Shown: positions 15,420 through 35,558, numbered from the stretch's first letter. The stretch: DNA of 64,000 nucleotides from Candidatus Brockarchaeota archaeon (GCA_017601345.1 JAFNIT010000003.1:4994-68993); one strand, 5' to 3'. Notes: generated from the letters alone by a model not told the origin. A program made the numbers and translations.

Positions 15420-17141
15420 TCATTTGCCTTGATTTAACTTTTTCCAAGGATGCTTCATATACAATGCGCCTTCCTGAACATCCTCTAGTCTATCTATGCC
15501 CGGGCAATTATTCAAGTAGTTTATAACCTTCTCGTTAAGAGGACCTGATGGTTTTATAATTAGGTTTATGACTCTACCGTGATAGATTTCCCTCATCGAG
15601 CTCGAAACCATTATGATGATATTATTTTTAAATGAGTAGGGTTCTCCAGTAACTGATACATTTACAAGCCACGAGTTAGATGGGAGAAACCATGATGTTA
15701 AATTACCCATCCAATCAGCCCTCCTATGGGATGTGAACATTAAGACAGCGCCCAGCCTTATATCCGTATCTATTTTAGCATTGAACAGTATAGAATAAGC
15801 GTACGCATCTTCTGCAAGTTTCAACTCCGAATAACTAACAGACTCTCTAACACCGTATGCAAATTCAGGTTTTGGAAAAGATGATGCAGCAAGTGAAAAT
15901 ATGAAATAGGCGATTATCATTCCAGCAAGATATTCTTTCTTTATACTGTCTAGCTCCTTGCTGAAAAGGCTCAGCCCGTATCCGGCTAGAGGAGTTGCAA
16001 AATATATTACGAAAGTAGGAAGCCTGTGAATAAGCACATTATAGTTTTCCAAGGAGATTATGAAGAAGGCCTCAATCATGAAGAGCGTCAACGGGGCCAT
16101 GAAGAATATTGAGTCTAAAAGCGTGCTCTTTCTACAGTATTGAATGATACCATATATTGCAAAGGGCAAGAAGCCGAGCGATATGGGAATAGTAAACCAT
16201 AGGATTGTTGGAAGGGCTTCAGGATGGAAGATCATTGTCAAAAAGCTTGGAAGGACCATTCCAATTATAGGCATTAATATAAACGTCTTTCTGGAGGCGG
16301 ATTTCTCAAACTTCTTAAGAAATCTTATGGGTTCTACTATGGCTATTGGGAAAAGGAATACTCCTGCAAGTAGTATAACGGGGAAGAGTCTAATCTTCGT
16401 AACCATATTGAAAAGAAGTATTAACGTGTTTTCATCTTCTCCTGAAAGATTCCATATATAATTTGAGGAGACTAAAAGAATGATAATTGTTATTAAAATC
16501 AAAGCAAGCAGGCGTAGTAAGCCTCTTTCCCTTAAATATCTTACGTAATAGTAAAGATATGAAAGAAAGAGGGATGAGAAGAAAAGAAATAATTGAAAAA
16601 CGGAAAGATGATGGCTCATAACAGTAAAGAAACCTGAAACCATTGCCAAGTACATCCATCTCCAATCTTCAAACGCTTTCCTCATAAAAAGCACTGATAA
16701 TCCGAAGAATAATAATCCTAAGCCCTCCGGTATTATCACACCACCTATTTGATGTACAAGTAGATTCGTTACTGCGAGGTATAGCAGCGTGTATATTGGT
16801 TCGTTTTCAGATGTTTTGAAACCTTTAGAGATAAAGTATGGCGGAAGAATGAAGAATGTAAATATAAGTGGTTCTATAAAAATTAGTATATTTAGGAACA
16901 TTTCATAGCCGAATGTTTTCAAGATTGCGAGTTGAACATAGTAGAAAAGCGGCCCGTGAGGCATGGAGACATGTTTACCTTCATTAAGCACAAGAATTCT
17001 TGACGTAAACTCATAGATGTCAAAACCATAAGGTAGACCATATTTTAGAGAAGGAGTAATCCTGAGAAGCATCGCCAGCATGAATACGAGAAGCAACCAA
17101 CAGGTATTTGTTTTTCTTAGCCTATCCAGGTTTGAACCCAT
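15420..17141 (-). CDS. polytopic membrane protein, possible GT-C-type glycosyltransferase
   Basis: 573 aa with many hydrophobic helices followed by a C-terminal soluble domain of about 130 aa. Sits in a glycosylation gene neighbourhood. The family assignment is not certain. Confidence 0.4.
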   Translation of the reverse strand: MGSNLDRLRKTNTCWLLLVFMLAMLLRITPSLKYGLPYGFDIYEFTSRILVLNEGKHVSMPHGPLFYYVQLAILKTFGYEMFLNILIFIEPLIFTFFILPPYFISKGFKTSENEPIYTLLYLAVTNLLVHQIGGVIIPEGLGLLFFGLSVLFMRKAFEDWRWMYLAMVSGFFTVMSHHLSVFQLFLFFSSLFLSYLYYYVRYLRERGLLRLLALILITIIILLVSSNYIWNLSGEDENTLILLFNMVTKIRLFPVILLAGVFLFPIAIVEPIRFLKKFEKSASRKTFILMPIIGMVLPSFLTMIFHPEALPTILWFTIPISLGFLPFAIYGIIQYCRKSTLLDSIFFMAPLTLFMIEAFFIISLENYNVLIHRLPTFVIYFATPLAGYGLSLFSKELDSIKKEYLAGMIIAYFIFSLAASSFPKPEFAYGVRESVSYSELKLAEDAYAYSILFNAKIDTDIRLGAVLMFTSHRRADWMGNLTSWFLPSNSWLVNVSVTGEPYSFKNNIIIMVSSSMREIYHGRVINLIIKPSGPLNEKVINYLNNCPGIDRLEDVQEGALYMKHPWKKLNQGK

Positions 17142-27832: not shown

Positions 27833-28149
27833 GGCGGCAGGTAGGCTCGGGGGGCTCGCCATCCCCTGTAACCCGAAACTGGCGACACGCGGGGAGCTGA
27901 TAACCGTGGGGACAGGGCGGATTCGCGCAGCCGTGTGCGACAGGGCTGTGAAAGCCGTTCCTTACCGGGCGGGTGTGGCGGAACGTGTCCGCTGTAGGGT
28001 GGGCACGCCCGCCTAATTACCGAACCCCGCTAGGCCCGGGAGGGAGCAGCGGTAAGGTAAGCTACCCGCGTTGGTAAGAGACGGTTGGAGGAAAAAACCT
28101 GTCGCTCATGGTTGCGTTGAAGAAACCCGATCCTCATGGGGCTGCCGCC
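27833..28149 (+). ncRNA. signal recognition particle RNA (archaeal 7S/SRP RNA)
   Basis: GC-rich island of about 317 nt with no ORF. The ends GGCGGCAG.../...CTGCCGCC pair. It contains the conserved helix-8 motif CTAGGCCCGGGAGGGAGCAGCGGTAAGG (compare GGCCCGGAAGGGAGCAAC). Confidence 0.85.
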
Positions 28150-35241: not shown

Positions 35242-35408
35242 TCTTCATCCACACCTGAATTAAAACCAGCCCCTAATAAAAACCTTTTTATCCAAAACCC
35301 TCGTTTTATGCTCTCTATTGGCCAGGCGACATAAAATTTGCTTTATGCTTTCAGCAGTAAACCGTGGAAAAACCTTTAAACCCTTGTTTAACAGACTTCT
35401 ACTGGAGT

Positions 35409-35558
35409 GGGGCCGTAGTCTAACCAGGCAGGACGGCGGGCTCCAGCCAATAATGGTAAGGACGATCCCATCAGGGAGATGATGAGAGGTTGGAGCGGTG
35501 AGAGACCCGTGAATGGGGGTTCAAAGCCCGGAGAGGCGGACACATCCTCCCGGCCCCA
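35409..35558 (+). tRNA. tRNA-Trp (anticodon CCA) with a 58-nt canonical intron carrying a C/D-box-like module and a second ~19-nt T-arm intron
   Basis: 150 nt. GGGGCCG-TA-GTCT-AACCAGGCA-GGAC-G-GCGGG-CTCCAG | intron 35447-35504 | A-CCCGT-GAAT-GGGGG-TTCAAAG-CCC | insert ~35530-35548 | CC-CGGCCCC-A. Confidence 0.85.

Follow-up and report, generated by a model that had tools for sequence, protein, structure and literature searches.

A tRNA-Trp intron of a TACK archaeon as a probable reduced homologue of the euryarchaeal intron guide for C34

The window analyzed here is a 64-kb stretch of DNA from an uncultured archaeon of the TACK group, whose genome seems to be without a tRNA-Trp because standard tRNA finders miss the gene. 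An earlier note on this DNA had proposed that a tRNA-Trp gene with two introns lies at positions 35409 to 35558 and that the intron in its anticodon loop encodes a guide for the wobble base of its own anticodon. The locus raises the question of whether this intron is a splicing insert or also a C/D guide RNA and, if it is a guide, how it relates to the tRNA-Trp intron guides of the Euryarchaeota.

Structure of the tRNA-Trp gene

Read by hand, the gene for tRNA-Trp(CCA) extends from 35409 to 35558 on the plus strand, with minus-strand open reading frames (ORFs) on both sides. Its acceptor stem is formed by GGGGCCG (35409-35415) and CGGCCCC (35551-35557), its D arm by GUCU...GGAC, and its anticodon stem by GCGGG (35436-35440) and CCCGU (35506-35510). 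Two insertions interrupt the cloverleaf: the anticodon loop begins with CUCCAG (35441-35446) and resumes with A38 (35505) after 58 extra bases, and the T arm holds 19 further bases. Exon 1 (35409-35446) comprises tRNA positions 1 to 37, with the anticodon CCA at 35443-35445; exon 2 (35505-35524) comprises positions 38 to 58; and exon 3 (35544-35558) comprises positions 59 to 73, with A73 at 35558 and the CCA end not encoded. Neither ARAGORN nor the Rfam tRNA model called the gene in the unedited sequence, because the two introns interrupt it. Upon deletion of the 19 bases in the T arm, ARAGORN reported a tRNA-Trp(cca) with a 58-nt intron at position 37/38, and we consider the gene structure secure. 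A TATA-like box A, TTTAAA, was read about 30 nt 5' of tRNA position 1 (35375-35380, plus strand). Resembling boxes, AAACCTT(T)AAA, lie at an equal distance upstream of the tRNA-Trp genes of relatives, and TTTAAA appears to be the promoter of this gene.

No second tRNA-Trp was found by ARAGORN in the 1.18-Mb assembly, which is 77% complete, and a brute-force scan gave no other credible candidate. A candidate on contig C5 was rejected as a class II tRNA, most likely tRNA-Ser(CGA). It lies outside the window, on the minus strand, at about 1480 to 1640 of the contig's reverse complement, and was called Leu(aag) by ARAGORN, yet it reads better as tRNA-Ser(CGA) with a 17-nt intron at 37/38, AUCUCAACAGAUGAGAG, whose UGAG pairs perfectly with C32-G35. 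Elsewhere in the window, an archaeal SRP RNA was found by Rfam search at 27834-28148, which marks this DNA as archaeal. Two short ORFs of 54 and 51 amino acids, at 35318-35482 on the plus strand and 35388-35543 on the minus strand, overlap the tRNA-Trp gene and are almost certainly spurious.

A predicted kink-turn and a single putative guide in intron 1

Intron 1 occupies 35447-35504 (58 nt) at the canonical position 37/38. From 5' to 3' it contains ACGA (35462-35465), a hairpin UCCC-AUCA-GGGA (35466-35477), AUGAUGA (35479-35485), a 12-nt spacer GAGGUUGGAGCG (35486-35497) and, directly after the spacer, GUGA (35498-35501), all on the plus strand. The first three of these elements fit the geometry of a kink-turn, with ACGA as the non-bulged strand, the hairpin as a loop-closed canonical stem, and a three-base bulge, G-A-U, followed by GA in the stretch 35478-35485, which gives the tandem G:A pairs. 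The intron is accordingly predicted to have an internal D'/C' motif able to form a kink-turn.

The motif, its 12-nt distance from GUGA and the intron length given in the earlier note were all verified at their coordinates, whereas its naming of the boxes needs amendment. What it had called a C box is, by alignment with the full tRNA-Trp introns of Euryarchaeota, box C'. Its D-like box does align with box D, although GUGA is the weakest element, since its GA is shared with the intron strand of the splicing helix. It had also reported no convincing second C/D half in the 5' part of the intron; box C and a second guide are indeed absent, but the partner of C' had been overlooked and is present as the D'-like ACGA with its 4-bp hairpin. 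The 15 nt 5' of ACGA (35447-35461) contain neither RUGA nor a complement to the region of positions 38 to 43. Intron 1 is without box C and without a guide for position 39, and with its single C-type box it does not have the two box pairs, C/D and C'/D', of a canonical dual-guide sRNA.

The pattern RUGAUGA-N12-NUGA matched twice in the 64-kb window, against 0.14 matches expected from shuffled sequences. The other match (15613-15635) lies inside an ORF of 573 amino acids and was set aside as a chance match.

Pairing of the putative guide and its relation to the splicing helix

Within the spacer, GGUUGGAGC (35488-35496) pairs with GCUCCAGCC (35440-35448), which consists of G31 to G37 and the first two bases of the intron and therefore spans the 5' splice site. 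This pairing, eight Watson-Crick pairs and one G:U pair, reproduces that of the earlier note, and the 9-bp helix is formed in cis in the predicted minimum-energy fold of the pre-tRNA. C34 (35443) stands opposite G35493, which is the fifth base upstream of GUGA and the eighth base after box C'. The assignment of C34 as the aim of the guide by the N+5 register is supported by the sequence, by the relatives and by the colinear guides of Euryarchaeota. Intron 1 has, as a guide of this kind should, 12 nt after box C' that are complementary across the 5' exon-intron junction in the C34 register.

Introns at 37/38 are themselves complementary to the anticodon loop: the central 4-bp helix of their bulge-helix-bulge pairs positions 32 to 35 with the intron bases that stand third to sixth ahead of the 3' splice site. 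Pairing of the intron with the first two bases of the anticodon is stated in PMC4090602. In intron 1 this strand is UGAG (35499-35502), which pairs with C32-U33-C34 and leaves a mismatch, C35:U. The resulting bulge-helix-bulge is relaxed, with an outer helix (h) of 5 bp, a central helix (H) of 3 of 4 pairs and an inner helix (h') of 1 bp, and nearly all relatives are alike in this. GGUUGGAGC is a second complement, separate from the splicing strand. The endonuclease requires the 5' splice site in a bulge, and the guide helix runs through that site; the antisense element is therefore not accounted for by splicing. In the splicing conformation, G35500 and A35501 of GUGA pair with C34 and U33. 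As box D overlaps the splicing strand, the guide and splicing conformations are mutually exclusive, which fits the established idea that methylation precedes splicing.

Conservation in relatives

Comparison with the tRNA-Trp introns of relatives, which the earlier note had named as a check, shows the layout to be kept throughout the genus, in most of the order and beyond. BLAST searches against 40 related genomes found the gene together with its intron sequence in the whole genus and in further families of the order, and 24 genes were then anchored on the antisense core. A strict pattern, CTCCAG-N15-45-RTGA-N7-TTGGAGC, was matched in 17/17 genomes of the genus, 6/9 other genomes of the order and 60/401 genomes of the phylum, while a reversed control pattern gave 7 matches in total across the same genomes. 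The layout common to the 24 genes begins with 13 to 40 unconserved bases, starting with CC, and nnGA; a short hairpin (with a loop of 7 to 8 nt in some families), one base, and RUGA with three variable bases follow. After these come a 12-nt spacer with the complement of G31 to intron base 2, usually nnGA, and 3 to 13 bases before A38. The reduced form also occurs in the tRNA-Trp genes of named Bathyarchaeia and Nitrososphaerota.

In the genus, the hairpin UCCC/GGGA has GA directly 5' and G-A-U-G-A directly 3', and GA adjoins the stem in all genus members and in every other lineage that has the stem; in other families, as in Euryarchaeota, the D' position is occupied by CUGA. Of box C', only AUGA is conserved: it shows no change within the order, whereas the last three bases vary. 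The AUGAUGA found here differs by one base from the AUGAGGA of most relatives, including the 97%-identical relative L002. In each of the 44 genes that were parsed, box C' and the antisense core lie equally far apart.

Box D is less regular. GA stands at this position in 19/24 relatives, is replaced in the other 5/24, and belongs to CUGA in Euryarchaeota. Among six genes whose long 3' tails separate the D position from the splicing strand, GA is retained in four, and three Bathyarchaeia introns stop 3 nt after the spacer and have no box D. The 15 nt upstream of ACGA are conserved in neither length nor sequence among relatives and often form unrelated hairpins. As a separate observation, in five genes of the Nitrosopumilaceae type (L036, L041, L066, L109, and L127) the 5' strand of the anticodon stem is apparently split by an insert just upstream of the GG-CUCCAG loop, and in our parser the stem closes only without the insert.

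Covariation was counted in modules from 41 genes, excerpted by our own anchors. Intron base 1 and guide base 4 form CG in 28 genes, AU in 11 and UA in 2, and are never unpaired; intron base 2 and guide base 3 form CG in 20, GC in 12, AU in 3 and other combinations in 6. The tRNA being fixed, the seven exon pairs of the guide helix do not vary. In the hairpin, each of the four pairs has changes in both strands across lineages (UCCC/GGGA, CCUU/AAGG, CCAC/GUGG, CCCC/GGGG, and CACG/CGUG), a result biased somewhat by our use of hairpin pairing in choosing the GA of D'; the covariation of guide and junction is independent of that choice. The covariation score was matched by 0/500 shuffles, and in shifted registers pairing falls from 88% to 52% or less.

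An ordinary second intron in the T loop

The earlier note was right that about 19 nt must be removed from the T arm, but its boundaries, 35530-35548, have to be moved. Their excision restores the cloverleaf without providing a bulge-helix-bulge (AAGC faces CAUC). In a scan of the whole gene region, the top-scoring bulge-helix-bulge places intron 2 at 35525-35543 on the plus strand, between A58 and A59 of the T loop. Its bulge-helix-bulge is full: all four pairs of the central helix are present (GUUC, 35519-35522, with GGAC, 35538-35541), the bulges are AA|A and AC|A, the outer helix has 4 bp, and the inner helix has 3 bp (GCC/GGC). The four closest relatives (L002, L004, L005, and L006) have an intron at the identical site with compensatory changes, namely, a central helix with GAAC and an inner helix of either GUCC/GGGC or GCCU/GGGC. 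Splicing at 59/60 was also considered and rejected, because this intron has no UGRR, on which that site depends. With the bulge-helix-bulge placement, the mature T arm becomes GGGGG-UUCAAAU-CCUCC instead of the GGGGG-TTCAAAG-CCCCC proposed earlier, and its loop is identical to that of intron-free relatives.

Intron 2 is ordinary for the lineage. Excision restores the cloverleaf, and the intron resembles other archaeal noncanonical introns in its 4-bp helix, its two 3-nt bulges, the cut after the second base of the bulge, its T-loop site and its coexistence with a canonical intron; nothing essential differs. Its position, 58/59, is one base from the site used elsewhere in the order, where members have either a T-loop intron at 59/60 (UUCA with UGAA, UGAG, or UGGA) or none, and some have D-arm introns. 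Six relatives (L016, L017, L018, L019, L024, and L025) have the same tRNA-Trp gene with differing extra introns, including D-loop or D-arm inserts of roughly 20 to 39 nt and T-loop introns at 58/59, at 59/60 or not at all. Because these extra introns differ between species, noncanonical introns seem to turn over quickly while the guide intron at 37/38 is kept.

Guide machinery and other C/D RNAs

Adjacent genes for fibrillarin and Nop5 were found in 14/15 other genomes of the genus that were searched, including that of the closest relative. They were not found in the window's own assembly, likely because it is incomplete (77%). A strict dual-guide C/D pattern gave 0 matches in 16 genomes of the genus, 14 of which were searched again; it matched one to four times in each of 24/151 genomes of the phylum, and controls gave 0 matches. 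Since the pattern is insensitive, its absence throughout the genus only hints at a scarcity of canonical guides, and canonical guide RNAs in the genus may be scarce or have diverged boxes. Looser scripted scans of the assembly gave no convincing canonical dual-guide C/D RNA, and a limited search of this incomplete assembly found no stand-alone guide with the antisense TTGGAGC.

Interpretation and alternative explanations

From the layout, the pairing and their conservation, we conclude that intron 1 is probably a reduced homologue of the euryarchaeal guide, aimed at C34 before splicing, in a gene that carries an ordinary intron 2 besides. As an element, it is very probably functional and directed at C34 only. 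L7Ae would bind the single kink-turn, and a Nop5-fibrillarin dimer would assemble on this complex. The guide would pair, in cis or in trans, with G31 to intron base 2 of the unspliced pre-tRNA-Trp, and C34, which faces a guide base eight positions after C' and five before D, would receive the 2'-O-methyl group. The RNA would then refold so that C32-C34 pair with UGAG (35499-35502), and the splicing endonuclease would remove intron 1 from the bulge-helix-bulge; intron 2 would be removed by the same endonuclease. Because box C is absent, the canonical particle with two kink-turns cannot form, and the positioning of fibrillarin by an RNA with one kink-turn is a proposal.

The simplest alternative is that the antisense and the boxes are by-products of splicing and that AUGAUGA and GUGA are chance sequences or structural filler with no guide function. 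The GA of GUGA does belong to the splicing strand, and an ending ...GAUGAGAG|A also closes the 17-nt intron of the tRNA-Ser(CGA) on contig C5, where it is purely a splicing strand, so that the ...UGAGAG|A ending can be a splicing strand alone. Box D is, moreover, degenerate in relatives, and a perfect AUGAUGA occurs only in this genome, most relatives having AUGAGGA. Nevertheless, the splicing helix uses a strand other than the conserved GGUUGGAGC, and the 9-bp helix puts the 5' splice site in a duplex that is incompatible with the bulge required by the endonuclease. Kink-turn geometry and the fixed distance from C' to the antisense hold at the level of the order and the phylum, with covariation, and euryarchaeal guides that have been proven by experiment are colinear with this arrangement, so that we consider a mere by-product of splicing unlikely.

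These observations bear differently on the possibility that the element is functional without being a guide, for instance as a chaperone or timer that, bound by L7Ae, masks the anticodon and the 5' splice site, or as a stabilizer of the excised circular intron in some other role, with any Cm34 made by another guide or enzyme. The intron has a single predicted kink-turn and lacks box C, some lineages do without box D, and some archaeal guides need both motifs for efficient methylation in vitro. The tRNA-Trp intron of Sulfolobus, to which no role has been assigned, accumulates as a stable circle (PMC3326292). Against such a role, every lineage has the exact register of a methylation guide, eighth after C' and fifth before D, and the homologue of the element in euryarchaeal introns is the C34 guide. 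Cm34 is also present in a crenarchaeon whose intron likewise lacks consensus boxes (PMC7668247, PMC3326292), and the limited search of the incomplete assembly gave no stand-alone guide with the antisense TTGGAGC. A nonguide function, too, seems improbable to us. Less probable still is a complete two-guide C/D RNA in which divergence has made box C and the second guide unrecognizable, or in which they are completed upon circularization. Archaeal tRNA introns and C/D RNAs do circularize (PMC3326292, PMC7994747), 58 nt is about the minimal length of a C/D RNA, and the 5' part allows a canonically spaced reading, AAUGGUA-N12-UCAG. This candidate for box C and a second guide was rejected because it is conserved in no relative. 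The segment 35447-35461 varies among relatives in sequence and length and often forms unrelated hairpins, no relative has RUGA 12 nt upstream of D', and nothing in tRNA-Trp is complementary to the 12 nt upstream of ACGA. Circular permutation, with 35504 joined to 35447, gives the junction GUGA-GAG-CCAAUAAUGG and creates no box C.

The comparisons show that the reduced design, with one kink-turn, one C34 guide and the position-39 guide lost, is conserved with covariation across several TACK lineages. If active, it would be a natural half-size guide particle that tests the positioning of fibrillarin with one L7Ae site, and it would account for the presence of Cm34 in archaea that have no consensus boxes in their introns. 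For Sulfolobus, there is only a hint in the literature that a boxless intron might guide (PMC3326292). We put forward more tentatively, as a possibility that we would not yet favor, that one kink-turn and one 12-nt guide, with no box C and a vestigial box D, might suffice in vivo for site-specific 2'-O-methylation, the site being measured from C' by the Nop5 dimer. This might be the normal form across the TACK archaea (Bathyarchaeia, Nitrososphaerota, and the order studied here, with a genus in which the strict search gave no dual-guide C/D RNAs).

Comparison with known intron guides

An intron guide in tRNA-Trp that makes Cm34 and Um39 is established in Haloferax and predicted for Pyrococcus (PMC7994747, PMC4090602, PMC11408192), which agrees with the earlier note except that the latter had described both as established. 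The Haloferax volcanii intron and sR50 of Pyrococcus (Omer 2000, Clouet d'Orval 2001, and Singh 2004) are cited in these papers, and a 2024 review assigns the tRNA-Trp intron guide to Haloferax and other Euryarchaeota (PMC11408192). Our pattern scan of named genomes returned many chance bacterial matches and the tRNA-Trp genes of several archaea, among them the euryarchaeal Archaeoglobus, Methanomicrobiales, Methanoculleus, and Methanocorpusculum as well as Bathyarchaeia and Nitrososphaerota (Nitrosopumilaceae, Cenarchaeum, and Nitrososphaerales). In Archaeoglobus, Methanomicrobiales and Methanoculleus the intron has the full form, consisting of C, 12 nt, D', a loop, C', 12 nt, and D, and its C'-D guide, CCCGUUGGAGCG, is colinear with the guide in the window. 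In Archaeoglobus (L083), the 5' half reads CUCCAG | CGGUAG, AUGAUGA (C), UAAACGGGUCUG, CUGA (D'), and ACAG, and the 3' half reads UGAUGA (C'), CCCGUUGGAGCG, CUGA (D), and CCCGAAGAG | ACCCGU; position 39 stands opposite the fifth base of the first guide and C34 opposite that of the second. Read colinearly with this intron, the window has ACGA in the place of D', AUGAUGA in that of C', GAGGUUGGAGCG as the D guide and GUGA in the place of D.

When the C'/D halves of eight euryarchaeal introns were made into a sequence-only model, it ranked 35477-35500 first in the window, with an E value of 0.29; we therefore base the argument for homology with the classical guide on colinearity and context and not on this score. 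At the gathering threshold, Rfam gave nothing at the locus; permissive settings gave weak matches to archaeal sRNA and SNORD families with E values of 0.8 to 7.

The window intron and the euryarchaeal intron guide share the gene, the intron position and the order D', loop, C', 12-nt guide, and D; in both, the core UUGGAGC lies across the 5' exon-intron junction and C34 stands opposite the fifth base upstream of D. In contrast to the euryarchaeal intron, which has box C, a D' guide for position 39 and consensus CUGA and UGAUGA boxes, the window intron has neither box C nor a position-39 guide, its D' and D are ACGA and GUGA, and its D overlaps the splicing strand. Whereas the D'/C' motif of euryarchaeal introns has a short loop, that of the window intron is predicted to be a kink-turn with a 4-bp hairpin closing it. 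Because box C and the position-39 guide are missing, we regard the window intron as derived from the classical intron guide, with one kink-turn and one guide left.

Within the TACK group, the nearest published parallel is the 65-nt tRNA-Trp intron of Sulfolobus solfataricus, a very stable circle (Danan et al. 2012, PMC3326292) that has no consensus boxes but has stretches antisense to positions 34 and 39 and, as its authors suggested, may still guide (PMC3326292); in Sulfolobus acidocaldarius, Cm34 has been found in tRNA-Trp (PMC7668247). The window intron resembles that of S. solfataricus in its TACK origin, its similar length, its lack of consensus C/D boxes and its retained antisense to the anticodon region. 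By the published description, the S. solfataricus intron differs in its complementarity to both 34 and 39, as against 34 only, and no kink-turn is described for it. A literature search returned no paper describing a design of one kink-turn and a single guide in TACK archaea. With the intron reported here, a system already known reaches a new lineage and takes a simpler form; the mechanism itself is not new.
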